A DNA stretch of 31,766 bases from Candidatus Fraserbacteria bacterium (GCA_037443265.1 JBBIOR010000020.1:1-31766); one strand, 5' to 3'; positions 1,570 through 23,665 are shown, counted from the first letter of the stretch. Program-made: numbers and translations. Notes: generated by a model not told the origin, from the letters alone.

Positions 1570-2148
1570 ATGCGCGCTGGCTTGGGGAGTCGTAGGAGAT
1601 TTCTCTATCGCGTCTCCCTTTACAGTCTGGCCCCCTTGGTGGGGTTGTACGTCTTCTGGGCTCACACGAGTCTGGAGGGGCGCCTGCTGGGTCTATCGGG
1701 CCTGGGCGTGGGTACGCTTGCGCTCTATCTGCTCTTCGCGCGCCTAAAGGACCCTGGGAGCGCGATTCGTTATGCGCTGCGTCCTGTGCCCATCGTCTTA
1801 AAGCTGCTGGAGCGCTGGCAGCCCCAGCCTGCGCGAGATCCCTTTAGGCTACAAGACTCGTTACGTTCTTTCTTGAGGGAGGCCCTTCCCGATGTGACCA
1901 TCGAAGAGCGTCACGCCGCTCAAGGCGAGCACATCGCGCTGTCCGTCGGGGAAGAAGTGCTCATTTATCTGGCCCCTTCGTCCCTCCAAGACATCGAGTC
2001 TCTGCGGGAGATCTTAGAGGAGCTACGCACTCCCCTACGCGAGGAGCCCTTGTTGATTGTGTATTTCGATGCCGGGGAGATGTCCGCTTGGGCGACTCAG
2101 TTGGCCGAGAGCATGTCACGCGCGCGGCTTCTGGTCAAGCGCTCATGA
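1570..2148 (+). CDS. Hypothetical membrane protein, two N-terminal TM helices plus a C-terminal alpha/beta domain
   Basis: 192 aa ORF filling the gap between neighbours; two hydrophobic segments followed by a soluble domain. Confidence 0.75.
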   Translation: MRAGLGSRRRFLYRVSLYSLAPLVGLYVFWAHTSLEGRLLGLSGLGVGTLALYLLFARLKDPGSAIRYALRPVPIVLKLLERWQPQPARDPFRLQDSLRSFLREALPDVTIEERHAAQGEHIALSVGEEVLIYLAPSSLQDIESLREILEELRTPLREEPLLIVYFDAGEMSAWATQLAESMSRARLLVKRS

Positions 2149-4695
2149 GCCGGGCGTAGGCAGCTTGCGGAAGATAAGATCCACCAAGAAGAGCGCTAGG
2201 GCCAAGAGGGCCAGGGTCTGCCAGATGTCGCGCCAGAACCAGGCGCGACCGCGCAGAAGAGGAGCCAATCCTTCAAGGTTTTCTAAATATTCCCCTCGGG
2301 TCTCGTAAGAGAGGCGCGTAAGTAGCTCTTGGTTTACTCCTATCCGACGATACTCAGCAGCGTAGGGGATGCTGATGGCCTCTTGCACCCATCCCAAAGA
2401 TTCCTCACCCACGCTGAGCAGATAGACTCCTTCTGTGAGATCCGGCACGCTCGCCTGATAGCGTCCGGGAGCGACCTGCTCGAAAGTGAGTGCTTGGGGC
2501 TCGGAGTCGGGAGCGCTCAGGCGGCCCTCCAGAGAGAGGAGATCGAGCCAGCGGCCGTCGCGCGCCGCCTCGGCCGTCACCCGGAGAAGAGAGCCCTCCA
2601 GCTCGGTCTGTAGAGTCAGCTCCTTAGGCGCAAGCGGAGCGTCGCTGTAGACTCGGCTCAGCAGCTCCGCTGCCAGCGTGCCCAGGCCCTCCCAACTGAG
2701 CCAGCGCCCAAGGCCCTCATCACTAAAGCTCGTGTTGAGCACAAGCACCTTGCCCAAGCCGTAGCGCCAGTGGCTGACCAGCGGATCCGCCTGAGCATCC
2801 TCAGCTCTAATTTGAAGGAGCGTCTGGGCCATCGGCTTCTCAAACGTGAGCACATACCCATCCACAGGAGGAATCGCCCTGGGGTCGACCTGGCGAAGCT
2901 CAAAGGCGTAAGGGCCGGGCACGACGGGTACCGGTCCTTTGATCCAGCGGGCTCGCTCCAGGCGGATCACCTCCTCCAGGGTGATCTGCGGCAGATCTTT
3001 TGCGTCCTTCACCTCGTATTTGATGCCCTGGCCTACCTCGGCCAGCCGCCAGAGAAATTCAATATCTGCCTGGGCACCGATGGCAATCGCAGAGGCCGTG
3101 ATCGTGCTCTGGGCGATCTCGCGGAAGATCCTCTCGAAATCGCGCCCCTCTCGCGCGACCTTCCCGTCGGAGAAGACGAGAATGTGCTTGACGCGGGCGC
3201 GCACTTTCTGAAGAGAGGCTACCGCATCGCGCAGAGCATTGTAGACGTCCGTGCCGCCGTTGGCGGAGAGCCCTTCGATCTTCCTGCGGATATCGCCCTT
3301 GCGACTGCGGACGGGCTCCAGAGGGACGAGCCATTGATAGGTGGAATCGAAGGCGATGAGGCCGAGGAGATTGCGCGCATCCAGTTTATCGACGGCCGCG
3401 ATGGCTGCCTGCTTAAGGAGTTCGATCTTGGGCTGTGTGCCTGCGATTTCGCCCATGCTGCCGCTCTTGTCCAGCAGCATCACCAGAGCGAGAGCCGGGC
3501 GCTGGAGCTCCTCTGGGCCTTCGTAGGTGACGGGCAGAAGCCTCTCCAGCTGGCGATCATAAAACTCCTCGACGGCTCTTCTCCCTTGGATGAGCCAGAG
3601 CCCGCCGCCCAGATCTTGCACGTAATGCGTGAGATTCGCGATCTGGCTGCGGCTGAGCTCTTTGAGAGGAACGTCATCCAGGATCACGGCGCGGTAGGAG
3701 AGCAGCGAGGTCGGCGTGGGGGCGAACGCCCGCAGCGAGACCCGCGCGTACACATGGCCGGCACTGCTGAGCATCCGTTCCAGCGGCGAGGGGCCTTTCA
3801 AATCCGCTTCGACGAGCAAGATGCGCGGACCCCCCACGGCTTCCACTAGGGCTCGATAGACGTTGTTCTGGAGGATGGCGTCATCGGGAGCGATCAGCTC
3901 TGCGCGATACTCATGGAGGCCAGGCTGCTCCAGCTCATCTCTCTGCTCGAAGAAGTTGAGGCCCGCCTGTAATGTGAGCTCTTGACTGGCGATGAGCGTC
4001 TCGTCGCGATAGACCAGCAGGCGTGCCAGGCTTGGCCGTGAGGCATAGATTACGCTTTGGAAGGCGAACGGGAGCCCTAAGGCCACCTCGCGCGGGACCC
4101 GCACGTCTTGTATCGAAAATTCTGTAGCCGGCGCCTCCATAGCCATCGTGAAGATGGGCACGCCTTCCCGAGCAGCTCTCCTTGTGGCAGTCGCGAGCGC
4201 CCCCTGGGTAGGCTGGCCGTCGGAGAGCAGCACGATCGTCTTCGTCCCATCTTGAGGGAAAGTGGCTAAGGCCAGTTCGATCGCCGCGGCCAGATCCGTC
4301 GCTTCGCCCCCTAGGGTGGTGTGCAGCTCTTCGAGGTTGAGTGAGGGCGCGAAAGGTGCCTCAACGAAGGGCTGCTCTGCGAAGACGATCACGCCGTATT
4401 GTGTGCGAGGCTGAGGAGAAGCCCAGCGGTTTAGGCGCTCAAGAAAATCGGGCGAAAGCGCGGCGCGCGTGCTCTGCGATATATCTACGAGAAAATAGAC
4501 GTAATGGTTCTCCGCGCGGCTTTTCATCTGCGGTCCGGCCCAGGCCAGAACGAGGAGCGCGATGGCTCCAACCCGGAGCCAGATCGCCAGGCGGTCTGTG
4601 AGGGTCTTCCCTCGTAGCTCGCTTCTCCTTAAGGCCAGATACCCCAGCGGAATGAGAAGCCAAAGCAGCAGCCAGGGCGCAAGGAAGCGAATCAC
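2143..4695 (-). CDS. Membrane protein with two vWA domains and a class I glutamine amidotransferase-like domain
   Basis: N-terminal TMs; MIDAS motifs LVDISQS and LLDKSGS with LSDG/FSDG; YRAVILDDVP...GGGLWLIQG and WRYGLGKV segments; C-terminal TM. Confidence 0.9.
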   Translation of the reverse strand: MIRFLAPWLLLWLLIPLGYLALRRSELRGKTLTDRLAIWLRVGAIALLVLAWAGPQMKSRAENHYVYFLVDISQSTRAALSPDFLERLNRWASPQPRTQYGVIVFAEQPFVEAPFAPSLNLEELHTTLGGEATDLAAAIELALATFPQDGTKTIVLLSDGQPTQGALATATRRAAREGVPIFTMAMEAPATEFSIQDVRVPREVALGLPFAFQSVIYASRPSLARLLVYRDETLIASQELTLQAGLNFFEQRDELEQPGLHEYRAELIAPDDAILQNNVYRALVEAVGGPRILLVEADLKGPSPLERMLSSAGHVYARVSLRAFAPTPTSLLSYRAVILDDVPLKELSRSQIANLTHYVQDLGGGLWLIQGRRAVEEFYDRQLERLLPVTYEGPEELQRPALALVMLLDKSGSMGEIAGTQPKIELLKQAAIAAVDKLDARNLLGLIAFDSTYQWLVPLEPVRSRKGDIRRKIEGLSANGGTDVYNALRDAVASLQKVRARVKHILVFSDGKVAREGRDFERIFREIAQSTITASAIAIGAQADIEFLWRLAEVGQGIKYEVKDAKDLPQITLEEVIRLERARWIKGPVPVVPGPYAFELRQVDPRAIPPVDGYVLTFEKPMAQTLLQIRAEDAQADPLVSHWRYGLGKVLVLNTSFSDEGLGRWLSWEGLGTLAAELLSRVYSDAPLAPKELTLQTELEGSLLRVTAEAARDGRWLDLLSLEGRLSAPDSEPQALTFEQVAPGRYQASVPDLTEGVYLLSVGEESLGWVQEAISIPYAAEYRRIGVNQELLTRLSYETRGEYLENLEGLAPLLRGRAWFWRDIWQTLALLALALFLVDLIFRKLPTPGS

Positions 4696-6542
4696 CGTCT
4701 CCTCCTCGGCCTGGGCTGCCTGCTGCGCTCGAAGAGCGGCCAGCGCTCAAAGTAGAAGAGTTCGAGCCATAGCAGTCCGATCGCCGCGGCCAGAAAGTAC
4801 GGCCAGAGTGCACGGGCCGCGCGCAACTGGCCCTCTAAGCTCCTCTCGGCGGATGGCGCGGGGTGAGCCAGGGGTGGAGCTTTTCTCTGGGAGGTCCAGC
4901 GGGACTCTTCCGGCGGCGGGTTGGCCGCAAAGAGCTTTTCAATCCCACCGGAGACCACCTCATAGAAGCCCGGCTGCTCCAGATGCCCGCAAGAGGAAGT
5001 TTTTATCGCCTGGCAGGAGCGCCCGGCCGGATCGATCACTTCGACAGAATCTGCAAAGCCGCTCAGGGGCAGCTCCCCTCCGACGTCTAAATTCGTCTCC
5101 TCCTCTGCTCTTGGAGCCAGCCAAGAGAGGAGTCGGTGCATCAAGATCGGGAAATCCAGAGAGATCCCCAGATTGGAAGCCGCAAGATCCACGCCCAAAT
5201 ACGCCAAGCGCAGCCCCCTGGTCTCATAGAGATACAAGAGGGGAATCTCGCCAGCCGTGATCAACACTTGGCCTTGGGGGTCCACTTGAGCCCGCGGAAC
5301 TCTCAAGAGACGCCAGTCCTTTGGGTTGATCCCCCCCAGCAGGGGATGATTCACTCTGGCCTCCACGCTCAGGCTTTCCGCTTCGATCTCATCGTTCCAC
5401 GCCACCCAGGGAGGCAGAGCGGAGTGGATCAATAAGAACCTCCCGGCCACGGGAGCGGCGAGCCCTCCTTGATGGACCACCATCAGATCCAGCTCGTTGG
5501 CTGAGGCATCCGCGGTGCGCTGCCAGCTGAGATCTACGCTTCCCAGGAGCCGGAAGAACCTCTCCAGATAGAAATTCCGCTCGCCTAAGAAGAGCACCTT
5601 CCAGGGTCGGGGTCGGGGCAGCGCAGCGTATCGAATATTATCCTCAGCCCAATCGTCTGAACTGCCTTCCAGCTGAGCCACGAACCGCGAGAAAGATGGA
5701 CCCTCATGGCGGAAGGCCAAGGCTGAGATGCGCTCAGGCTGAAGAAGAAGGGCCCTCTCTTCAATGATTTGTCCATCCGCCGTGATGCGCAGCTGGACAT
5801 TTCGTGGCTGCCGGCCTGAGTTCCACAGCTCCAGGAATAGATCATAAGAGCGGCCGTCGGGCTGCTCTCGGACTCCAAAGCGGGTAATAGCTAAGTTCTC
5901 GCGCTCGGTGGCTCCGACGAGCCGGACCTCCCAACCCCACTGCTCTGGACTCTCGGCCGGCGGCTGATCTGTCAAGAAGACGACCCGGTCGAAGCCTTGA
6001 GGGGATTGGCTCTGCAGCAGGCTCAAAAGATCATCCAGTTTGGCATCGCCCTGGAACGTAGCCTCAAACTGGGCGAGCAGTCGTTCGATCTGTCCATGGT
6101 CGTGGGTGGGCGGCGCAAGCAGCGTGCTATGGGCTTGGGCGCCAATCAGGGTCACCTGGGCTGCCGGGTTGGCGCGCAAGATCTGGAGGGCTTCTTGGGC
6201 AGCCTGCTGGGCGAGCGTCGGGCCATCGGGGCTTTTGCGGGCCCGCATGCTGGCGCTTTTGTCTATCACCAAGGCCAGCGACTGGACGCCGCCCGCGCGC
6301 GTGTAGATCACCGGCTGAGCCAGTCCCAAGACGAGAGCCGCTAGGGCCAAGAGCTGCAAGAGGAGGCCAAAGAGTCCCCTCCAGCGTAGTCGCAGGGCGC
6401 TCTTAGGGTTCTGCTCCATCCCGCGCCAGAGCCATAGAGACGAGACGGGGACGAGGCGCGCTTGTCGCTTGAGAAAATAGATCACAGCCACAGGCGCTCC
6501 CAAGCTGAGCAGCCCCAGGGCCCAACTCGCCAGCAAGATCAT
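4692..6542 (-). CDS. BatA N-terminal domain plus vWA domain membrane protein
   Basis: IYFLKR...VSSLWLW...LLLQLLALAALVLGLAQP is a BatA-type N-terminus; MIDAS VIDKSAS and FLTD; C-terminal TM. Confidence 0.9.
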   Translation of the reverse strand: MILLASWALGLLSLGAPVAVIYFLKRQARLVPVSSLWLWRGMEQNPKSALRLRWRGLFGLLLQLLALAALVLGLAQPVIYTRAGGVQSLALVIDKSASMRARKSPDGPTLAQQAAQEALQILRANPAAQVTLIGAQAHSTLLAPPTHDHGQIERLLAQFEATFQGDAKLDDLLSLLQSQSPQGFDRVVFLTDQPPAESPEQWGWEVRLVGATERENLAITRFGVREQPDGRSYDLFLELWNSGRQPRNVQLRITADGQIIEERALLLQPERISALAFRHEGPSFSRFVAQLEGSSDDWAEDNIRYAALPRPRPWKVLFLGERNFYLERFFRLLGSVDLSWQRTADASANELDLMVVHQGGLAAPVAGRFLLIHSALPPWVAWNDEIEAESLSVEARVNHPLLGGINPKDWRLLRVPRAQVDPQGQVLITAGEIPLLYLYETRGLRLAYLGVDLAASNLGISLDFPILMHRLLSWLAPRAEEETNLDVGGELPLSGFADSVEVIDPAGRSCQAIKTSSCGHLEQPGFYEVVSGGIEKLFAANPPPEESRWTSQRKAPPLAHPAPSAERSLEGQLRAARALWPYFLAAAIGLLWLELFYFERWPLFERSRQPRPRRRR

Positions 6543-7411
6543 TGCAGAAGTGCCCCCTCTCGCAACGTCTTAAGCACCGTCTCCTCCAATGGAACTCCCG
6601 ACGAGAGGCGGAAATAGCGCAGATCGTGACGCAGGCAGAACTCCTCCAGCCGCCGGCAGTACTCCGAAAGATTCTGGGTATATTGTCGCAGGGCCTCCTT
6701 CCCCACGTAGATGGCCAGCTCCTTTTGATCTTCAATGTTCTTTAGGTGTAGCTCGCCGCCCAGCTTGGGCAAAAGATCCTCCGGTGCCAAAAGGTGCAGC
6801 ACAATGACGCTGTGGCCGCGGTAGAGCAGCCGCGCCAGCCCCTCCTCAAAGCCGTCTTCGCTCAGCATATCGCTGATGATGACACAGAGTCCGCTCTCAC
6901 GTCGAATGCGGGTGAATCGTCTAAGAGACTCGTTGATGGAGGTCTCCCCGGCCGGTTGGATCTCCTGCAAGAAGCGAAAGATTTCGAAGATCTGGCGATG
7001 CCCACCCTTGGGGGCAATCCCACGGCAAAGATCCCTGGCAAAGGGGAAGATCCCCACGCGATTTAAGTCTTTCAAGCCCAAATAGGCCAGGGCTCCCGCC
7101 AGCTGGGCGGCGTACCAGAGCTTCTGTCCGATCTCCATGGAGCGGCTGATGTCTAAAAATAAATAAATGGGCACATCTTCCTCGCGGGTGAAGACTTTGA
7201 TGAATAGGCGGTTCAGGCGCCCATAGAGGTTCCAATCGACGTAGCGCAGATCTTCTCCGGGGTAATACTCTTTGTACTCGGCGAACTCTAAGCTCATGCC
7301 GGCCCGTGGAGTGAGCCGCCGTCCCATGAGCGTGCCGTGAAACCGCCCGCGCACGACGAGCTTGAGATTCTCCAGTCTCTTGAGGAACTCTGGAGTGAGC
7401 AGGATGGCCAT
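6539..7411 (-). CDS. DUF58 domain protein (MoxR partner, vWA-like)
   Basis: GMSLEFAEYKEYYPGEDLRYVDWN, LDISRSM and IISD motifs; directly follows moxR. Confidence 0.93.
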   Translation of the reverse strand: MAILLTPEFLKRLENLKLVVRGRFHGTLMGRRLTPRAGMSLEFAEYKEYYPGEDLRYVDWNLYGRLNRLFIKVFTREEDVPIYLFLDISRSMEIGQKLWYAAQLAGALAYLGLKDLNRVGIFPFARDLCRGIAPKGGHRQIFEIFRFLQEIQPAGETSINESLRRFTRIRRESGLCVIISDMLSEDGFEEGLARLLYRGHSVIVLHLLAPEDLLPKLGGELHLKNIEDQKELAIYVGKEALRQYTQNLSEYCRRLEEFCLRHDLRYFRLSSGVPLEETVLKTLREGALLQ

Positions 7412-8395
7412 CTAGACCTCAGGCGTTCTTTCCAGCACTTGCTGGAGGATCTCCTCGACGGCGATCCCCTCGGCCTCGCCCCGGAAGTTTCGAATGAGGC
7501 GATGGCGCAGCGCGGGCAGAAAGACTTGATGGATATCTTCGGCTCGAACGTTGAGCTGACCTTCCAAGAAGGCATTGGCTTTCGCTCCCCACAGCAGGGC
7601 GATGCCTGCCCGGGGACTGGCCCCGTACTCCACGTAGTCGCGCACGAGCGGGGGTGTGCCCTCGGCCTGCGGATGAGTGGCCGCCACAAGGCGCACAATG
7701 TAATGCCTCAAGGGCTCGGCAATCGGGATCTGAGAGACGAGCTGGCGGGCTTCTAAGAGCTCCTCACGGGTGAAGATCCTAGCTGCGGGCAAGGCGCCCT
7801 CGAGGGCGCTACGCACCAGGATCTCATCCAGCTCGTCCGCAGACGGATAGTTCAAGAGGAGCTTGAAGAAGAAGCGATCGACTTGGGCTTCCGGGAGCGG
7901 GTACGTGCCCTCCATCTCGATGGGGTTTTGAGTCGCCAGCACCATGAAGGGATCTTCCAAGGAGTACGTCCGCCCGCCGACGGTAACACTCTTCTCTTGC
8001 ATGGCCTCAAGGAGTGCCGATTGGGTCTTGGGCGTGGCCCGGTTTATTTCATCGGCCAGGATGATATGGGCGAAGATCGGCCCCTGGGTGAACTCGAAGT
8101 AGCGCCGGCCGCTCTCGTCCTCCATGATGATGTTCGTGCCCAAAATGTCCGCAGGCATAAGATCCGGCGTGAACTGGATGCGCGCGAATTTTAAGCCTAA
8201 AAGATGCCCCAGCGTCCGCACCAGCAGCGTCTTGCCCAGCCCCGGCACGCCCTCCAGCAGCACGTGCCCGCCACATAAGAGGCAGATGAGCACCCCTCGA
8301 ATGGTCTCTTGATGGCCGACGATCACCCGCTGGATCTCACGTGTGAGCCTTTGAAAAGCCTCTTGACTTCTGGCGAGTCGCTCTTCGAGGAGCAT
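7412..8395 (-). CDS. moxR: MoxR family AAA+ ATPase
   Basis: Walker A GVPGLGKT, RIQFTPDLMPADI, Walker B LADEINRA, ATQNPIEMEGTYPLPEAQVDRF, GASPRA. Confidence 0.97.
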   Translation of the reverse strand: MLLEERLARSQEAFQRLTREIQRVIVGHQETIRGVLICLLCGGHVLLEGVPGLGKTLLVRTLGHLLGLKFARIQFTPDLMPADILGTNIIMEDESGRRYFEFTQGPIFAHIILADEINRATPKTQSALLEAMQEKSVTVGGRTYSLEDPFMVLATQNPIEMEGTYPLPEAQVDRFFFKLLLNYPSADELDEILVRSALEGALPAARIFTREELLEARQLVSQIPIAEPLRHYIVRLVAATHPQAEGTPPLVRDYVEYGASPRAGIALLWGAKANAFLEGQLNVRAEDIHQVFLPALRHRLIRNFRGEAEGIAVEEILQQVLERTPEV

Positions 8396-17057: not shown

Positions 17058-17858
17058 GTGAAGGCATTGGATCTGGGACTGAAGGGCCGAGTGGCTCTGG
17101 TGGCCGCAGCCAGTCAGGGATTGGGCAGGGCCATTGCCACGCGCCTCGCTCAAGAGGGAATGAAGCTGGCCATCTGCGCCCGTCATGAAGAACCTCTCAA
17201 AAAGAGCGCGGAAGAGATCCAGAGAGCCACCCGAGCCGAGGTCTTGGCTGTGCCTGCCGATGTCACCCGCTCTGCTGACATCCAAAGGCTCGTGCAGAAG
17301 ACCGTGGAGCGATTCGACTCGCTGGACGTGCTCGTCACGAACGCGGGTGGCCCCCCGCCCGGAAAATTCCTCGATCTGAAGGATTCGGCCTGGGAGCAGG
17401 CCTTCCAACTCACTCTGATGAGCGCGGTGAGATTATGCCGCGAGGCTATCCCGCACATGCAAAAGCAGGGCTGGGGGCGGATCATTCACGTTACGTCCGT
17501 CTCCGTCAAGCAGCCGTTGGAGAATCTCCTGCTGTCGAACTCGCTGCGCTTGGCCGTGATCGGCCTCTCGAAGACCCTGGCCCAGGAGCTGGCACCCTTT
17601 GGGATTACGGTGAACGCCGTCTGCCCCGGCCCCATGGCCACTCAGCGCCTAGAGCAACTGATCGCAACCCAGGCCCAGCATCAGGGCATCTCTCTGGAAG
17701 AGGCTAAGAGGAGCTGGACAAAAGAGATCCCGCTGGGGCGTCTGGGCCAGCCGGAGGAGCTGGCGGATCTCGTCGCATTTCTCGCTTCAGAGAACGCGCG
17801 CTTCATCACGGGCACAGCCATCCAAGTCGACGGGGGCATGGTCAAAGGGATCTTCTAG
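17058..17858 (+). CDS. SDR family oxidoreductase (atypical FabG-like subgroup)
   Basis: VAAASQGLG, VPADV, TNAGGP, VNAVCPG, ITGTAIQVDGG; the YxxxK motif is replaced by SNSLR. Confidence 0.92.
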   Translation: MKALDLGLKGRVALVAAASQGLGRAIATRLAQEGMKLAICARHEEPLKKSAEEIQRATRAEVLAVPADVTRSADIQRLVQKTVERFDSLDVLVTNAGGPPPGKFLDLKDSAWEQAFQLTLMSAVRLCREAIPHMQKQGWGRIIHVTSVSVKQPLENLLLSNSLRLAVIGLSKTLAQELAPFGITVNAVCPGPMATQRLEQLIATQAQHQGISLEEAKRSWTKEIPLGRLGQPEELADLVAFLASENARFITGTAIQVDGGMVKGIF

Positions 17859-17865
17859 TCATTTT

Positions 17866-18882
17866 ATGGAGGAATTCATCGAGATCGACGGGGCCGAGGG
17901 AGGCGGCTCGGTGCTCCGGGTAGGGCTTGGCTTGGCCGTCGCCCTAAAGAAGCCCATTCGGGTTAGAAATATCCGGGGGGCCCGAAAGGACCCGGGGCTG
18001 AAGCCTCAGCATCTGGCCGGGCTCTTGGCTACAGCCCAGCTGTGCAACGCGGCCCTCGAGGGGGCAACAGTCGGCTCGCGTGCCATCACTTTCATTCCCC
18101 AAGAGATCACTAGGCGCAAGCTCACAGTAACAGTTCCTACGGCCGGGGCGGTGGGGCTGGTCCTTCAGCCGCTGCAGATCGCCTGTCTCGCCGCGCCGCA
18201 GGAGGTCGAAGTCGTGATCGAGGGCGGGGGGACATTCGGGAAATGGGCTCCGCCTTTGCCCTATCTCGAAAGAGTCAATTTCGCCATCCTGGCCCGCCTA
18301 GGGTATCTCACGCAAGTTCACACAGAGAGATATGGCTTCTATCCCAGAGGTGGGGCGCGGGTGCAGGCACGCTTCTATCCACCCCAAATCCAAGGCCCCA
18401 TTCAGCTGGACGAGCGAGGGTCACTCCAGAAGATCCAAGGGCTCTCTTTTGCCACTCAAGCCCTCTCGGCGGCTAAGGTGGCCGAGCGCCAAGCCCAAGC
18501 CGCTCAAGCCAAGCTCCAGAGAGCATTTTCAGGCACGAGCATCTCTGTTGAACCCCGCTATGTCGAAGCCAGCTCCATCGGCTCCGCGGTCGTGCTCTGG
18601 GCTGCCTTCGAGCAGACGATCTTGGGGGCTGACGAGCTGGGCGAGCGCGGAGTCCCTTCGGAGAGGATCGGGCAGCTGGCGGCCGAGAAGCTCATCGCGG
18701 AGCTCCAGTCAAAGGCCACGCTTGACGTGCACATGGCCGATCAGATCATACCGCTTTTGGCTCTCTACGGTGGGTCTTTCCGCTGCCGAGAGCTCACCGA
18801 CCACATCCGGGTAAACATGTCCATCGCCGAGCAGCTGACAGATAGGAGTTTTGCTGTGGAAGACGGGAAGATCTCTTGTTAG
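17866..18882 (+). CDS. rtcA: RNA 3'-terminal phosphate cyclase
   Basis: IDGAEGGGSVLR, NIRGARKDPGLKPQH, GFYPRGG, VAERQ, DVHMADQ and LTDH (predicted adenylated His). Confidence 0.93.
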   Translation: MEEFIEIDGAEGGGSVLRVGLGLAVALKKPIRVRNIRGARKDPGLKPQHLAGLLATAQLCNAALEGATVGSRAITFIPQEITRRKLTVTVPTAGAVGLVLQPLQIACLAAPQEVEVVIEGGGTFGKWAPPLPYLERVNFAILARLGYLTQVHTERYGFYPRGGARVQARFYPPQIQGPIQLDERGSLQKIQGLSFATQALSAAKVAERQAQAAQAKLQRAFSGTSISVEPRYVEASSIGSAVVLWAAFEQTILGADELGERGVPSERIGQLAAEKLIAELQSKATLDVHMADQIIPLLALYGGSFRCRELTDHIRVNMSIAEQLTDRSFAVEDGKISC

Positions 18883-19685
18883 CGATCGCCGAAGACGAGC
18901 CGGACTTCAAAGAGCTTGGGCCAGAGTTTTCCGGTCACGAACAATCGATCGCCCTCAGCATCATAGGCGATCCCATTGAGGACATCGGCGGATCTTCTCT
19001 CTTCCGGGCTGAGCAGGCCCGTAAGATCGAGCCAGGCTCTGACCGCGCCCGTCTCTGGCGAGATGATGGCAATCCGATCCGTCTGCCAGACATTCGCCCA
19101 GATCTCGCCCTTGATATATTCTAACTCGTTGAGGTTTCTTATGGGCACCCCCTTGGCGCGCACTTCAAGGCGCCCGATCTCCTTAAAGCTCTCCGGGTCT
19201 AAGAAGCGCAGCGTAGATGTGCCGTCGCTCAGGATGAGGCGCCTGCCATCGTGGGTGAGCCCCCAGCCCTCGGTGGAATACGAGAACTGCCCAAGCAACT
19301 GGAAGCTCTCTCGGTCGTAGACGAAGCCCGTCTGTTCCCTCCAAGTCAGCTGAAGGATCTTCTCCTTCCAGAGCGTGATGCCCTCGCCAAAATATTGCGG
19401 GGGCAGATGATGGATCTGGAGCACCCGGCCCGTGAGGAGCTCCACGCGGCGCAGAGAGGATTCTCCATACAGCCCCGTCCCCTCGTAGAGGGCGCCACCC
19501 TCGAAGAGGAGCCCTTGGGTGAAGGCTCCTCGATCATGGGGATAGCTTTGGACGATCCGGTATCCGTAGACGGGGATAAGCTCGGCGGAAGAGCTGGCGG
19601 GAGGGGCTTGCCTTATCAGCGCGAGGTAGAGAGCAACTGCCAATAAGATCACGATGGTGGAAAGAGCCATCAAGCCCCGCTTCAT
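18879..19685 (-). CDS. Glutaminyl-peptide cyclotransferase (type II, plant/bacterial beta-propeller glutaminyl cyclase), N-terminally anchored
   Basis: YPHDRGAFTQGL, YEGTGLYG, FGEGIT, QLTW, EGWGLT, LNELE, VLNGIAYD, TGKLWP; hydrophobic N-terminus. Confidence 0.96.
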   Translation of the reverse strand: MKRGLMALSTIVILLAVALYLALIRQAPPASSSAELIPVYGYRIVQSYPHDRGAFTQGLLFEGGALYEGTGLYGESSLRRVELLTGRVLQIHHLPPQYFGEGITLWKEKILQLTWREQTGFVYDRESFQLLGQFSYSTEGWGLTHDGRRLILSDGTSTLRFLDPESFKEIGRLEVRAKGVPIRNLNELEYIKGEIWANVWQTDRIAIISPETGAVRAWLDLTGLLSPEERRSADVLNGIAYDAEGDRLFVTGKLWPKLFEVRLVFGDR

Positions 19686-19754
19686 GGCCAAATCTTACAA
19701 GATCGGTCGAGGGGTGAGCAAAGCTCCTTCCGCATCTTCCCCACGGCAGGCGGA

Positions 19755-20144
19755 TTACGGCTGGACAATGAGCTCGCCCTTCATGCCCTGCTCTTTGTGG
19801 CCTGGGACTTGGCAATAGACTTCATAGGTTCCGGGGGCCAGCTCGAGCTCGAGAGTGCGGGTCTGACCGGCGGGGAAGGGGTCGATCTCCTCTTCGACTC
19901 CCGGGCCTTCGACCTCAAAGCCGTGAGGCACAGTACCCTGGTTGCTGACGATAAAGCGCACCTTGCCGGCCTTGGCCGCAAGATGCGCGGGGATGAGCTG
20001 CCATTCTTTGAGGGTGACCGAAATCTGCTGAGCCCCATAGGGTGCGGGGGCTTTGAAAATCTTAAGGAGATCACAGCCGCTGAGCAGCAGCATGAGCCCT
20101 AACGCCAGGCCCGTCCAGACGATGAAAGGCCTTACAATGCGCAT
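19755..20144 (-). CDS. Cupredoxin-domain lipoprotein with a complete type-1 copper site
   Basis: Lipobox LLSGC; NQGTVPHGF (His) and YCQVPGHKEQGM (Cys, His, Met). ATG at 20144 follows a purine-rich SD. Confidence 0.9.
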   Translation of the reverse strand: MRIVRPFIVWTGLALGLMLLLSGCDLLKIFKAPAPYGAQQISVTLKEWQLIPAHLAAKAGKVRFIVSNQGTVPHGFEVEGPGVEEEIDPFPAGQTRTLELELAPGTYEVYCQVPGHKEQGMKGELIVQP

Positions 20145-20180
20145 GAGGCACCTCTCCACTCCCCTTGACAGGGGGTTGAT

Positions 20181-20678
20181 TTACTTCACTTCCAGCTCGA
20201 GTTCGATGGGATGGCCATGCGGGGCATGGGTGACTTTCAGTTTGCCGGGCGCATTTCGCTGGAGCCGGATGGCCACCGGCTTGCCCTGCTCCAGGCCAAA
20301 GAGCGTCTGTGAGGCCTGCAAGACTTTAGTGGGGTCAGCCGGATCGACAATGTCAAATGAGAGGCGATTTCCCGCCTCATCGACGATGGCTATGGAAGGA
20401 TGGAACCGCTCACCTGAATCCGTCGTCGCGTTGTAGATGACGATCTGGCCACGCTTGAGCTCGGTGGCGGTGGCAAAGATCGCCCCCTTGTTGTCGGGGG
20501 CGATGAACTTGGTGGTGCCGGGATGGTAGAGCGAATGGATGAGCGAGAGCTCAAAGGCCTGCGTCTGTGCCTGCGACGGCGGATTATGATACGGGGCCAG
20601 AGCCGGCTGAGCTGCTTCCAGCAAGAGCAGCAGAGCGAATCCCAGCAGCGATACCCTCCTCCAACGAAGATCTCCCAT
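20181..20678 (-). CDS. Secreted His-rich beta protein, possibly a divergent cupredoxin fold
   Basis: ATG 20678 follows SD GAGGAGGG; signal peptide; no Cys; motifs IHSLYH, RFHPS, VTHAPHGHP. Confidence 0.8.
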   Translation of the reverse strand: MGDLRWRRVSLLGFALLLLLEAAQPALAPYHNPPSQAQTQAFELSLIHSLYHPGTTKFIAPDNKGAIFATATELKRGQIVIYNATTDSGERFHPSIAIVDEAGNRLSFDIVDPADPTKVLQASQTLFGLEQGKPVAIRLQRNAPGKLKVTHAPHGHPIELELEVK

Positions 20679-20730
20679 GCTGTATCCCTCCTCAGTATTT
20701 AAATTATGCCCTGTTGTTATAGCCTGCCTG

Positions 20731-20739
20731 TGGTAAAAT
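20731..20739 (+). promoter_or_regulatory. Extended -10 promoter element for the membrane regulator gene
   Basis: TGGTAAAAT (TGn-TAAAAT) in the AT-rich divergent intergenic region; followed by the direct repeat ATCTCAA-GG-ATCTCAA. Confidence 0.4.
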
Positions 20740-20778
20740 GTGAATCTCAAGGATCTCAAAGGAGGGTCAATCGCGCCG

Positions 20779-21681
20779 TTGGACAGGCCGAGTGTCAGGG
20801 TGCGCCTAAGGCTGGTGATGCTCGTCCTGGGGACCACGATCCTCCTGAGTGCAGCTTTAGGAGCCCTCTATGTCCTTCGCGCCTCGGGGAGCTTGCGGGC
20901 GCAGTTCTTCGAGCTGGCCAAGCGTTCGGCTCAGATCTTTGCGGAGGCCGTGGACGCCGGCACAGCGGCACCCCAAGAGATCGCCCAGATCTTCGTCCGA
21001 GGCGACGTGCTCTATGCTCAAGTCGTCCGGAATGGGCAGATCATTGCTGAAGACCCCCCGGAGGCGTCGTCGGAGTTGGGTCTTCCTGAGGTGGAGTTCT
21101 CGGGTACGCTCCTCTGGCGTGAGGGGCAGCTTCGGGATGGCACCCCCTATCTCGAGCTGCTGCGCCCCTTGACGGGCGCAAGCCAGAGGGAAGCTACTCC
21201 AGAGCCGAGCTACGTCCGAGTCGGCTTCTCGCTCCTGCGGGTGCGCAGTGCCCTTCAGGCCGAGATCCTGCTCGTCTTGGGAGTGGGCCTGGGAATCCTC
21301 CTCATCGTGGGCCTGCTCTGCGGAATGTATCTCTTCTTCCGAGCGCGATCCGCTTCAGCTCCTGGAGATTCTAAAAGACCCGCAGCAGCCTTGGTGATCG
21401 ATCCGGCCGGCAAGGAGGTCCGTCTTAGGGGAAAGCGGGTGAATCTTTCGCCCAAGGAATACGAGCTAGTGAGTCTTTTGGCCTCGGAACCCGGTCGGGT
21501 CTTCTCGGATCGGGAGATTCTAGAAAGAGTCTGGCCCCAGAGCCACACGGCCACCTCCAAAGACGTCAAGCAATATATTTATTTATTGAGGAAGAAGCTG
21601 GAGCCGGACGCCCAGCGGCCTCGACTCATCGTCACCCACAAGGGCTTCGGGTACAAGCTGGTCTTTCACGAGGACGATTGA
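20779..21681 (+). CDS. Membrane-anchored one-component regulator: TM-extracytoplasmic domain-TM fused to a C-terminal OmpR/PhoB-type winged-helix domain
   Basis: Two TM helices flank a soluble loop; C-terminal LSPKEYELVSLLASEPGRVFS...ILERVW...YIYLLRKKLE...IVTHKGFGYKL is the Trans_reg_C pattern. Start is uncertain: TTG 20779 after AAGGAGG, or GTG 20740. Confidence 0.88.
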   Translation: MDRPSVRVRLRLVMLVLGTTILLSAALGALYVLRASGSLRAQFFELAKRSAQIFAEAVDAGTAAPQEIAQIFVRGDVLYAQVVRNGQIIAEDPPEASSELGLPEVEFSGTLLWREGQLRDGTPYLELLRPLTGASQREATPEPSYVRVGFSLLRVRSALQAEILLVLGVGLGILLIVGLLCGMYLFFRARSASAPGDSKRPAAALVIDPAGKEVRLRGKRVNLSPKEYELVSLLASEPGRVFSDREILERVWPQSHTATSKDVKQYIYLLRKKLEPDAQRPRLIVTHKGFGYKLVFHEDD

Positions 21682-21718
21682 CCCGATTTTGGCCCGCCAT
21701 CGATTCCTTTTTGAGGCC

Positions 21719-21764
21719 AAAAGAAAGAAAAAGAAAAAGAAAAAGAAAAAGAAGGAGGGAGGAG
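21719..21764 (+). repeat. 46-nt purine-only tract containing a (GAAAAA)4 simple sequence repeat
   Basis: Four perfect GAAAAA units at 21727-21750, preceded by degenerate units and running into the SD of the next gene. Confidence 0.9.
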
Positions 21765-21770
21765 TGAGAG

Positions 21771-22361
21771 ATGGCTCGCTTAAGCAGGCGTGCTCTTCTG
21801 GGCGGTGCTTTAGGAGGGATCTTCTTCGGCTGGAGCCGTGCGCTCTTGGGTGGGGTCCCCTACGGGCAGTCGGACGAGCCGCTTAGAGCTTGTACGCGGG
21901 AGGCGGAGGCGGCCAACGGGGAGATCTCTCTGGCTATAACCCATCTGCTCTTTGCTTGGGACGCCCTGAGCCGGGGCGATCTGGCCAGCTCCAGGCTCCA
22001 TACCCATCAGGCGCTCAATCTGCTCGAGGGCCCCGGGGGTGAGCATTACGACGACGCCTACGAGGGCCCGCAGGATGGGGTGGGCGCGCAAGTCCACGCC
22101 CGGCGCCTGCTGGAATGTCTGCAGCAGGCCGCTCCGGGGGCGGATTACGTCCTGGCGGCGGAGAACGTGCTCTTCTTCCTGGAGGCGGCTATCGTTCATG
22201 CCTCCGGGGCTCTGGGGCGACTCGACTCGAAAGCGACGGCGATCCGAGAGCTTCGTGAGGCACAAGGGTTGCTCATGGCCGCGCGCGGCTCGCGGGAGGA
22301 GCGATACCGGCCCAGCGAAGGGGGGACGCGCACGATCCTAGCCTGGCTGGAGGATCTTTAA
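21771..22361 (+). CDS. Tat-exported helical His-containing hypothetical protein
   Basis: SRRALLGG twin-arginine signal; strong SD; motif LHTHQALNLLEGPGGEHYD...GPQDGVG. Confidence 0.85.
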   Translation: MARLSRRALLGGALGGIFFGWSRALLGGVPYGQSDEPLRACTREAEAANGEISLAITHLLFAWDALSRGDLASSRLHTHQALNLLEGPGGEHYDDAYEGPQDGVGAQVHARRLLECLQQAAPGADYVLAAENVLFFLEAAIVHASGALGRLDSKATAIRELREAQGLLMAARGSREERYRPSEGGTRTILAWLEDL

Positions 22362-23128
22362 ATCTCGTAGTGAGTGACGATCTTCTTCTCTTCTCCAGTG
22401 ATCTCCACGCGGATCTCGAAGTGCTCTTTGATCCCGCTGTTCTGCAGCTTGGGCTTTAAGAGATTATCCAGCTGGAAGATGCCTGCGGAATTGGACATGT
22501 GGATCTCGATGCAGACGGGGCTCTCCTCGCCACGTCGGATGCGAACCTTCTCGATGGCCATGGCAGAGACGGCATGGATCGTCGGGCTGCCCTTGGAGAA
22601 GGGAATGCGCGCCCGGCCCTCCTCCATGTCCAGGGCGTCGGCCACTTTCAAGACGCCAGCCTCGAGCGTCAAGGGCTGAATATCCGTCTTGTGCGCGTAG
22701 ATGGCGTGGAGCGTCTCCGAGGTGATGATGGCCTTCTCGCGCTCCGGGTAGAGCCCGCTGAGCAATTCTTCGATCAAGGGAAGTGCCAGCGGCACCGAGA
22801 AATCTTCATGGCGGACGCGATGGACGATGTGTCCGACGTCATGCAGACACCCAGCCAGCACCACGATGAGCTCCGCGTCGTCTTTGGTGAGCTGATAGTT
22901 CCGCTCCACGCTGGTCCTTACACCTTGCTCGGTGAGCAGTCTCAAGATCTTAAGCGCCAGATTGCAGACGATCTTGATATGAATGGGCCCGTGATCGTTG
23001 ATCCCGAGGCGATCCACGGCCATGACGTTCGAGCACTGCCAGAAGGTCTGGAGCTTCGCCTCCGCCTCGATTCGCTCGACGAGCTCTGCTAATTTGCGGT
23101 TGCCGCCCAGGGGCAGATTGAGCAACAT
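22358..23128 (-). CDS. HD-superfamily metal-dependent phosphohydrolase (COG3294-like)
   Basis: NDHGPIH, LHDVGH, VADALDM..GRAR, IHAVSA. Confidence 0.9.
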   Translation of the reverse strand: MLLNLPLGGNRKLAELVERIEAEAKLQTFWQCSNVMAVDRLGINDHGPIHIKIVCNLALKILRLLTEQGVRTSVERNYQLTKDDAELIVVLAGCLHDVGHIVHRVRHEDFSVPLALPLIEELLSGLYPEREKAIITSETLHAIYAHKTDIQPLTLEAGVLKVADALDMEEGRARIPFSKGSPTIHAVSAMAIEKVRIRRGEESPVCIEIHMSNSAGIFQLDNLLKPKLQNSGIKEHFEIRVEITGEEKKIVTHYEI

Positions 23129-23140
23129 GTCAATCCAACA

Positions 23141-23665
23141 CTACTGAGGTGACTGGTCTGTCTTTTGGATCTCGCGGATTCTCTCGATGCCCCCTATCTC
23201 ATCGATCACATCGCAGACGGGCTTGGGCACGTAGCGCCGCCACTCCTCGCCTTGGAGCATCAGCTCGCGGATCTTCGTGCCCCAGAGATGCCTTCTGTCT
23301 ATCGGGGGAACCTGTTTGACGGGGATGCCGGCCTCTTGAAAGAGGCGGACCACCAGAGGATTATTCGAGTAGACGAGGTCAAACGGCGGCGTGAGCCGCC
23401 GAATGTGCGCGACATACAGCGCATTCTGCTCGATGTCTTCAATGGGGAGCACATACTTGGTCACAGGATGATCATCGAGAGCTCGGATGATCATCAAGAT
23501 TCTTTCTCCCGCCGTGAACGGGTCTCGAAGCGTATGGCTGTATTGAGCTGAACCTACGGCGATGATGAGCTCCTCCACTTCTGGGGCGATCTTTCGAATC
23601 ACGGCGTCGTGGCCGTTGTGATAGGGCTGAAAGCGACCCAGAAAGAGTGCCCGCTTGGCAGACAT
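23141..23665 (-). CDS. nadM: Nicotinamide-nucleotide adenylyltransferase, archaeal NadM type
   Basis: GRFQPYHNGH, GSAQYSHT..PFTAGER, YSNNPLV, GTKIR. Confidence 0.95.
   Translation of the reverse strand: MSAKRALFLGRFQPYHNGHDAVIRKIAPEVEELIIAVGSAQYSHTLRDPFTAGERILMIIRALDDHPVTKYVLPIEDIEQNALYVAHIRRLTPPFDLVYSNNPLVVRLFQEAGIPVKQVPPIDRRHLWGTKIRELMLQGEEWRRYVPKPVCDVIDEIGGIERIREIQKTDQSPQ

Follow-up and report, generated by a model that had tools for sequence, protein, structure and literature searches.

A kinase-free transmembrane regulator and its co-conserved partner beside a cupredoxin operon in a Candidatus Fraserbacteria genome

The stretch analysed here is one whole contig of 31,766 bp from a Candidatus Fraserbacteria bacterium (GCA_037443265.1, JBBIOR010000020.1:1-31766; contig C20, hereafter the window), part of a genome of 1.69 Mb in 44 contigs that is 88% complete. 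At 19755-22361, calling of open reading frames (ORFs) finds four genes in two divergent pairs. On the plus strand, the gene of a 300-residue transmembrane transcription regulator (20779..21681, in a frame open from GTG 20740) is followed, after a spacer of 89 nt, by that of a 196-residue protein (21771..22361), here called the partner and predicted to be a periplasmic four-helix bundle. On the minus strand, the gene of a secreted 165-residue protein (20181..20678) precedes that of a type-1 cupredoxin lipoprotein (19755..20144, ORF open to GTG 20159), and a glutaminyl cyclase gene (18879..19691) begins 63 nt further on; these minus-strand genes are referred to as the cargo. The region between the pairs (20679-20778) holds 46% G+C, against 61% for the window. 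An earlier note on this DNA had described four ORFs at these coordinates around an AT-rich divergent region of about 100 bp, and both descriptions hold up in the ORF calls, domain searches and base composition; it had further read the genes as a self-contained copper-sensing module. The new results shift the emphasis: the conserved unit is the regulator with its partner, and on balance they slightly favour a model in which this pair acts as a switch for the divergent cupredoxin operon, with the cue left open. Throughout, L### denotes homologous loci, G### genomes of the phylum set, f1 and f3 families, and C## contigs.

The regulator has a single Pfam match, Trans_reg_C (PF00486; 78.4 bits against a cut-off of 26.2), which spans the whole profile (positions 1-77 of 77) and residues 231-307 of the 313-residue frame that opens at GTG 20740. 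The N-termini of homologues favour TTG 20779, the start assumed in the earlier note, over that GTG; 12 nt before it stands a Shine-Dalgarno sequence read directly from the strand (AGGAGGG, 20760..20766, +). From this start a basic N-terminus leads into a hydrophobic helix, some 128 residues, a second hydrophobic helix with basic residues after it, a linker of about 15 residues and a winged helix-turn-helix (wHTH) domain. Specifically, the first transmembrane helix (TM1) lies at ~20809-20880, the sensor at ~20881-21264, TM2 at ~21265-21339 and, behind the short linker, the wHTH at 21430-21660, all on the plus strand and with the membrane limits read from the sequence. The two helices and the domain match confirm the claimed order of membrane helix, sensor and wHTH, with a second membrane helix between the last two, and they predict a two-pass protein with its N-terminus inside, an extracytoplasmic domain and a cytoplasmic C-terminal wHTH.

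The phosphorelay domains are missing from this architecture. Neither Pfam at E 0.1 or better nor NCBIfam gives a match to REC (PF00072), HAMP, HisKA or HATPase_c, and the NCBIfam response-regulator models cover only the C-terminal ~95 residues (about 196-308), all far below their cut-offs, with MtrA- and PhoB-type models scoring best on the wHTH. A word-indexed protein search, in which 8000 candidates were scored, returned 706 proteins at E 0.001 or better, and the homologues come from organisms named as Bipolaricaulota, Acetothermia or Fraserbacteria. The top 102 listed are 183-371 residues long with PF00486 only; from rank 103 onwards follow classical REC-wHTH regulators, which share 57-72% identity with the query across its final 29-34%. 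Overall, the wHTH shares 55-72% identity with such classical regulators.

The same genome also encodes a classical counterpart. On contig C13 lies the gene of a 504-residue HAMP-HisKA-HATPase_c kinase (L090:592-2106) that aligns at its N-terminus with regulator residues 7-186 (30% identity, E 4e-11), and the adjoining REC-Trans_reg_C regulator has a wHTH 57% identical to that of the window regulator. A sensor profile (A2), built from nine close sequences and searched against 184 genomes of the same phylum, the comparison set for all profile counts, gives 98 matches in 52 genomes, of which 68 lie in frames of 166-410 residues and 30 in frames of 471-887 residues. Because the profile matches both frame sizes, one sensor type is common to kinases and fused regulators. 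These comparisons support a reading of the regulator as a kinase-free, collapsed derivative of a two-component system, in which the sensor would have been fused to the wHTH without HAMP, kinase or receiver. Two further full-length regulator paralogues lie on contigs C32 and C8. With a kinase-regulator pair and a fused, phosphorylation-free descendant in one phylum, and even in one genome, the step from two components to one becomes accessible to direct study.

Across a 33-member family alignment the sensor keeps L91, A93, Q94 and G162 invariant, together with the motifs GDVLYAQVV and YVRxGxSL, and no His, Cys or Met is invariant or nearly so in these 33 sequences or in the nine close ones. The domain is probably Cache-like: a language-model feature search with residues 1-190 yields 8 + 8 + 1 + 2 look-alike clusters with sCache families at scores of 0.94-0.95, which express likeness of features only. 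Weighing against this assignment, the sensor has no Pfam Cache match at E 0.1 or better and no PDB sequence match by profile. A metagenome scan with the window sensor alone gave 330 pattern matches and no confirmed relative, and a second scan with alignment A2 gave three loci. As a separate observation, the upstream sequences of L003, L007, L008, L016 and L117, inspected by eye, contain a tRNA-like sequence on the opposite strand just before the regulator gene.

The partner is the regulator's true conserved companion, and the cargo genes are not. Its 196-residue sequence matches nothing in Pfam, NCBIfam or the PDB (the best PDB hit, at E 0.16, is a designed helical repeat), and a protein atlas search gave no usable match. 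Of the 18 loci where the match extends into the sensor, 13 have a partner homologue directly downstream by tblastn, and none was found at L002, L009, L023, L026 and L053; L026 does have an equally long ORF, which aligns at 24%. With a profile of 23 members, the family is present in 87 of the 184 genomes. With joined coordinates, and with adjacency defined as a distance of 450-690 nt behind the sensor match in the same orientation, the partner lies directly downstream of 51 of the 68 regulator-sized sensor matches, against 2 of the 30 kinase-sized ones. Several of the 17 regulator-sized matches without a partner lie at contig ends, and the two kinase-sized cases are probably regulators in long open frames, because so short a gap leaves no room for a kinase core. 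The pair is thus strongly co-conserved, and of the four-gene co-conservation expected by the earlier note this part stands; a fixed four-gene module finds no support, as the cargo varies between clades and between syntenic relatives. That the partner accompanies only the fused form suggests what may replace control by a kinase.

An AF2 model of the partner from 23 sequences (pLDDT 86.6) shows an all-helical up-down bundle behind a disordered leader. Foldseek returns no match to this model at E 0.001 or better, and the VIA-align list (Z 16.2 to 10.3) begins with de novo four-helix bundles and includes, further down, LytS-N, 4HB chemoreceptor domains, SMBP and PsbQ; it is uninformative on kinship, because such scores among helical bundles mean only a common arrangement. 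N83, G87 and G105 are invariant in the family, and His77 is kept in 20 of 23 members. The earlier description of this protein as Tat-exported is weakly supported: the window protein carries an SRRALL motif, and Pfam TAT_signal has no match. Tat export is not a family trait, since the RR pair occurs in only 2 of the 23 aligned members, the others having Sec-like leaders. The gene itself is preceded, within the 89-nt spacer and just before its GGAGG, by a purine-rich (GAAAAA)n tract (21716..21755, +).

Structure prediction further supports binding between the two proteins. Sensor residues 34-160 and partner residues 36-196 were modelled together in three runs with three controls, giving interface scores (ipSAE) of 0.69, 0.00 and 0.71, a median of 0.69 and a best control of 0.00; the partner is modelled at pLDDT 83 or better, and at least 2% of contacts are common to the runs. 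The ipSAE mark is reached by 116 of 157 solved complexes and by 2 of 215 mismatched pairs, counts that are rough since own alignments were used. The one run of three that scored 0.00 speaks against the complex. The predicted interface joins sensor residues 43-77, the most conserved stretch of the domain (invariant A51, Q52, F54, A55, E56, V73, G75 and D76), to partner residues 50-77 in the first two helices. Separately, partner-profile matches occur within open frames of 524-775 residues (G173:C212:1042-1602, G134:C6:46355-46879, G173:C1:1040-1606, G175:C2:44759-45301 and G138:C44:6643-7155), where the four-helix domain may possibly be fused to something larger.

On the other side of the divergent region, the cargo operon most likely encodes two cupredoxin-fold proteins, one of the blue type and one with a possible all-His site. 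The lipoprotein matches Pfam Cupredoxin_1 (6e-14, 52.3 bits against a cut-off of 27) and Copper-bind (6e-7, 30.2 bits against 21.2). Its likelier start, read directly, is ATG 20144 behind GGAGAGG rather than GTG 20159. The ligands H79, C116, H121 and M126 are invariant in nine sequences, and the lipobox, LLSGC in the window, takes the form L(S/A)(G/S)C in eight of the nine, so that its designation as a type-1 cupredoxin lipoprotein (H/C/H/M set, lipobox LSGC) is borne out at the level of sequence. Orthologues in family f3 are 66-76% identical.

The 165-residue protein belongs to no Pfam or NCBIfam family. It is secreted, as claimed; as a His-rich protein it is modest, with 7 His in 165 residues. 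Three close homologues share 60-66% identity with it, and it aligns, at 27-31% identity, with domain 2 of the two-domain proteins in L003, L007, L008 and L019, which begin with a plastocyanin-like domain. In place of the type-1 site Y-x-C-x-x-H-x-x-x-x-M it has T-H-A-P-H-G-H, with His replacing Cys and Met, and H48, H93, H151, H154 and H156 are invariant in eight sequences. An AF2 model from these eight is weak overall (pLDDT 63.3) and better in its core (82-88); every listed Foldseek match to it has a cupredoxin fold, among them copper nitrite reductases, multicopper oxidases, factor VIII and EfeO, with a best E of 7e-4 and two matches at E 0.001 or better. As a query, the protein finds one other genome of the 184, and there only with its first 44 residues. 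A whole-library profile search was set aside: half of the eight rows had an N-terminal plastocyanin-like domain whose columns entered the profile, and the 46636 matches, dominated by multi-cupredoxin proteins, say little about this protein.

The glutaminyl cyclase (Pfam Glu_cyclase_2, 7e-103; N-terminal membrane anchor) is probably the last gene of the cargo operon, a place that its spacing suggests; it follows the cupredoxin on the same strand both in the window and in G104 (L116:2429-3244, 72% identity). Between the first two cargo genes lies a short G+C hairpin (20160..20175), listed as terminator-like on the plus strand, with no U-run after it on the gene strand. The secreted neighbours also share an N-terminus made of signal peptide, APYH and a Pro-rich stretch, seen in the window (20181-20678, -), L116:4115-4642 (-), L083:8676-9287 (+) and L003:7234-7836 (+), while the domains behind this tag vary between the all-His cupredoxin fold, CHRD, an unassigned domain and cupredoxin plus CHRD. 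Plausible signal-peptide cleavage would leave an N-terminal Gln in the window 165-residue protein, the G104 CHRD protein and the L083 ORF; four other APYH proteins have no Gln there. A six-frame search of the window genome finds two [AS]PYH matches; one of them is the 165-residue protein, and no other ORF has APYH behind a leader.

Several comparisons bear on a link between this cargo and the regulator. The cupredoxin query matches in 30 of the 184 genomes, and 25 of the 44 matches entered, on 18 contigs of 17 genomes, lie no more than 12 kb from a regulator or partner, which we estimate, without computing it, to be far above chance for genomes of about 2 Mb. The observation that cupredoxin genes stand beside the regulator thus extends to its family. 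At least five arrangements place a cupredoxin near a regulator: the divergent one of the window, the co-directional one of f3, and those at G000:C32, G104:C6 and G052:C35. At G000:C32:1364-7527 (L113) a paralogous regulator that has no partner gene stands ahead of genes for Rrf2, for a DUF7482 protein with an RR leader, for a membrane protein resembling cupredoxins, for a cytochrome bd-I-like protein and for a cytochrome c. In one clade (L003, L007, L008, L016 and L019) two to five genes for cupredoxins and CHRD proteins come after regulator and partner on the same strand; orthologues of the window lipoprotein (67-73%) occur in L007, L008 and L019, and a two-domain relative of the 165-residue protein in L003, L007, L008 and L019. 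The most telling comparison is with G104:C3, of the same family, where glutaminyl cyclase, a plastocyanin-like cupredoxin and a CHRD secreted protein face regulator, partner, HD and NMNAT genes, which is the layout of the window with other cargo. The cargo would thus behave like a cassette that can be exchanged while the regulatory site stays in place, and in five of six family-f1 genomes a gene for a CHRD, cupredoxin or APYH-tagged secreted protein adjoins the pair.

Other loci weigh against such a tie. The cupredoxin-adjacent cases are not independent, because most come from family f3. The clade B loci L004 and L005, and with them L006 and L011, carry DUF1800 and DUF1501 genes instead, with a sulfatase in L004 and L005; L023 has an SBP_bac_5 gene, and L053 a Kelch gene and a weakly Cu2-monooxygenase-like gene. 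The syntenic pairs L083/G101 and L001/G098/G099, between HD/NMNAT and RtcA, show no cupredoxin match in the fetched flanks; L001 has a CHRD gene upstream, and L083 a downstream 203-residue ORF with the same APYH N-terminus. Compared with L083 and L001, the window pair (flanks 17058-18882 and 22358-23665) is inverted between SDR/RtcA and HD/NMNAT, so the divergent layout is derived; G104 is oriented as the window is. If the neighbourhood were coincidental, the pair would control itself or distant genes and the cupredoxin operon would be controlled separately, and the derived layout, the changing cargo and the two syntenic relatives without a cupredoxin match all fit that idea. We nevertheless regard it as unlikely: in G104 the divergent layout persists around a different copper-type cargo, with repeats at the same offset, and both the adjoining genes in the f1 genomes and the clustering within 12 kb run counter to it.

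A candidate operator lies in the divergent region itself. The direct repeat ATCTCAA-GG-ATCTCAA reported earlier is present (20744-20750 and 20753-20759, a 9-bp period), and with a third TCAA unit, GGGTCAAT (20763-20770), the array found by repeat search and comparison with relatives spans 20744..20770, its TCAA units standing at 20747, 20756 and 20767. Sites of OmpR-type wHTH domains are tandem direct repeats with a usual period of 10-11 bp, and OmpR/PhoB-type activators usually sit just upstream of the -35 element. Written for the cargo strand, the array becomes TTGACCC, TTGAGAT, TTGAGAT and stands just upstream of a candidate -35 TTCACA (20744-20739), which is separated by 17 nt from TATAAC (20721-20716). 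This putative promoter (20716..20744, -), by eye a fair sigma-70 type, lies about 30 nt before the Shine-Dalgarno sequence of the 165-residue protein gene (AGGAGGG, 20686..20692, -), itself 7 nt before ATG 20678 and read from the sequence.

Comparable repeats recur among relatives. In G104, AGGTCAAC (GTTGACCT on the cargo strand), of 8 nt, occurs twice with an 11-bp period, its first copy 66 nt from the cargo ATG, as in the window; in L083 and L120, GCTCGCAAGG occurs twice at the same place before AGGAGGG as the window repeats, and an alignment of the window and L120 arrays shows an identical pair of changes in each copy. Perfect repeats of at least 7 nt at 9-11 bp are found in four of six upstream regions of f1 orthologues, against 492 of 11194 genome windows (4.4%); the binomial P for three or more of six, 0.0015, is overstated because kin are not independent.

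Several results count against an operator. Near-dinucleotide shuffling of the 100 bp yields a perfect 7-mer repeat at 7-12 bp in 562 of 20000 cases (2.8%), plain shuffling yields one in 430 of 20000 (2.2%), and 992 of 16922 of the genome's 100-bp windows (5.9%) contain one, so that the repeat on its own is only marginally unusual and does not go beyond chance; what weight it has comes from the relatives. The repeat units differ between relatives (ATCTCAA, AGGTCAAC, GCTCGCAAGG), as do their periods (9, 11 and 10 bp); L117 and L118, two of the six f1 orthologues, have no repeats, and the L119 repeat, CCGCGTC, lies in a terminator-like G+C-rich palindrome behind the upstream gene. An automated promoter scan of the region returned no promoter-like site, because its -10 pattern has to end in T. 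Among the sequencing runs listed, no RNA run contains the stretch and one DNA run does, which may be its source.

The window and L120 repeats, moreover, abut the regulator's Shine-Dalgarno sequence and could be leader sequence. It is accordingly a real, if lesser, possibility that ATCTCAA belongs to a leader or ribosome-binding sequence (a stuttered CAAGG/AAGGAGG) or arose by chance. The repeat ends 1 nt before AGGAGGG, L083 and L120 share this layout, L118 and L119 have a degenerate CGCAAG..CAAGAGG, the chance rate is 2-6%, and the 9-bp period is off the usual 10-11. A leader is harder to reconcile with G104, where the 8-nt repeat with its 11-bp period lies far from the regulator start (115 nt) and at the window's own distance of 66 nt from the cargo ATG, or with the enrichment of four in six against 4.4%; no Rfam family covers the repeats, one sub-threshold lncRNA match (E 0.064) having been disregarded. 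A pho-box reading of the window was dropped, as it offers only CCTGTTG and CCTGTGG, 17 bp apart. In clade B, CCTGTCA-N4-CCTGTCA (11-bp period, one mismatch in L004) stands shortly before TATAAT at L004:5880-5990 and L005:5940-6050, and this pho-box-like site precedes the regulator, partner, DUF1800, DUF1501 and sulfatase genes.

CopRS and CusRS are copper-responsive two-component systems, and CopI is a cupredoxin. The earlier note had seen in the four genes a kinase-free counterpart of the CopRS/CusRS type. The kinase-free derivation survives (sensor 30% identical to a kinase, E 4e-11); kinship with CopR/CusR finds no support, since the heavy-metal regulator model TIGR01387 (CopR/CusR/SilR) scores 35.6 bits against a cut-off of 279.2, below the MtrA- and PhoB-type models. 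It remains to weigh the stronger proposal of a direct extracytoplasmic sensor of copper (or zinc or nickel), a kinase-free CopRS/CusRS analogue in which the sensor or the partner would take up the metal and turn on copper-binding proteins that serve detoxification or buffering. The cargo lends it some appeal, with its invariant type-1 ligands, a second cupredoxin fold with five invariant His, and a weak similarity of the cupredoxin to CopI and the EfeO cupredoxin domain (34.2 against a cut-off of 280 and 12.7 against 200 for the CopI equivalogs; 45.7 against 270 for EfeO). Cupredoxin and CHRD genes also recur beside the family, and the partner's His77 falls within the modelled interface. The sensing proteins themselves point the other way: neither sensor nor partner has an invariant His, Cys or Met, the sensor conserving none in either alignment and the partner's invariant residues being N83, G87 and G105. 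Paralogues flank non-metal genes, and a canonical CsoR-CopZ-CopA set is already encoded on contig C4, besides another CsoR on C2. A haem-copper oxidase is present as well; together with the respiratory-type neighbours of the C32 paralogue (the cupredoxin, cytochrome bd-like and cytochrome c cluster), it would fit type-1 cupredoxins as electron carriers, not resistance proteins. Because of the missing ligands, the missing heavy-metal signature, the other cargo at paralogues and CsoR-CopZ-CopA elsewhere, direct metal sensing is considered improbable.

The available data are compatible with a model in which the pair itself forms a transmembrane switch. Its sensor and two membrane helices would derive from a histidine-kinase lineage and pass through a short linker straight to an OmpR/PhoB-type wHTH, and the secreted or anchored four-helix partner would bind the conserved N-terminal helix face of the sensor. 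An extracytoplasmic cue could then alter the sensor-partner complex and with it the pairing or orientation of the tethered wHTHs, which may bind the tandem TCAA/TTGA repeats upstream of the candidate cargo -35 and activate the operon, both site and direction being presumed here. As the same repeats overlap the regulator's own leader, at or after its transcript start, feedback is conceivable, and their occupation would probably damp the regulator-partner operon. Most likely, we infer, the cue is tied to periplasmic copper or redox state, and is not read through a conserved metal site in the sensor. A far-reaching version, offered as speculation and the least probable of the readings given here, would make this a phylum-wide family of collapsed two-component systems, rendered workable by a dedicated four-helix partner that is absent from the kinase relatives; in the present lineage it would form a feedback circuit with exchangeable cassettes of secreted copper-type beta-sandwich proteins bearing an N-terminal APYH-polyproline tag, the tag or the copper or redox state of these proteins being read by the sensor-partner complex.

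Elsewhere in the window, a row of genes for a MoxR-type AAA ATPase, DUF58, BatA and two VWA-domain proteins (2143-8395, -) represents a known kind of cluster. For engineering, the small pair (300 + 196 residues) might provide a simple switch across the membrane; the all-His cupredoxin-fold protein and the APYH tag are also flagged on copper-type cargo in a poorly known, uncultured phylum.

Taken together, the kinds of protein found here are known, and the particular family appears not to be, which partly upholds the earlier view that this is not a described system. As far as the consulted sections of the respective papers go, transmembrane transcription regulators are widespread and have two membrane regions in 17% of cases (Demey et al. 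2023, PMC10269533), the co-component pairs ToxR/ToxS, TcpP/TcpH and VtrA/VtrC are described as a kind (Kinch et al. 2022, PMC9214523), and so are Cache-type sensors with helix-turn-helix (HTH) outputs (Upadhyay et al., PMC4822843). Like the three co-component pairs in the portion available of that account, the present pair has a membrane-anchored, phosphorylation-free OmpR-type wHTH whose gene is followed by that of an extracytoplasmic partner, and it behaves as a co-component system in partner adjacency (51 of 68) and predicted sensor binding (ipSAE 0.69 against 0.00 for the control). Unlike ToxR-type proteins as described there, with an N-terminal wHTH and one helix, it has a C-terminal wHTH and two helices with the sensor between; the wHTH at residues 231-307 and the two helices around a domain of ~128 residues place it outside the ToxR-like group. 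The partner, modelled as a four-helix bundle (pLDDT 86.6), likewise differs from the lipocalin-like barrel given for VtrC, and no sequence relation to ToxR/ToxS- or VtrA/VtrC-type systems was seen.

With Cache receptors that have an HTH output, the regulator shares an extracytoplasmic sensor that fills the space between two membrane helices, following the sections consulted of PMC4822843; it differs in having language-model likeness only, with no Pfam Cache match, and a dedicated partner does not feature in those sections. CopRS/CusRS systems resemble it as envelope signal systems beside a periplasmic cupredoxin-type protein; here, in contrast, there is no kinase, the sensor has no conserved metal ligands, and the TIGR01387 and CopI models score far below cut-off. 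Closest are the OmpR/PhoB two-component systems, including the C13 pair, with a homologous sensor and wHTH (57% identity to the C13 regulator, up to 72% to other classical ones), from which it departs in lacking HAMP, HisKA, HATPase_c and REC and in having a partner that goes with the fused form, not with kinases. A literature search found no paper on this family of regulators, on cupredoxins of Bipolaricaulota or on a connection between copper and CHRD domains in bacteria, the supplements of PMC10269533, which may list members, lying outside that search. What appears undescribed is thus a family, restricted to one phylum as far as seen, with a kinase-derived two-helix membrane sensor, a C-terminal wHTH and an obligate four-helix partner, together with its recurrent link to cupredoxin/CHRD cassettes and an all-His cupredoxin-fold protein bearing an APYH tag.

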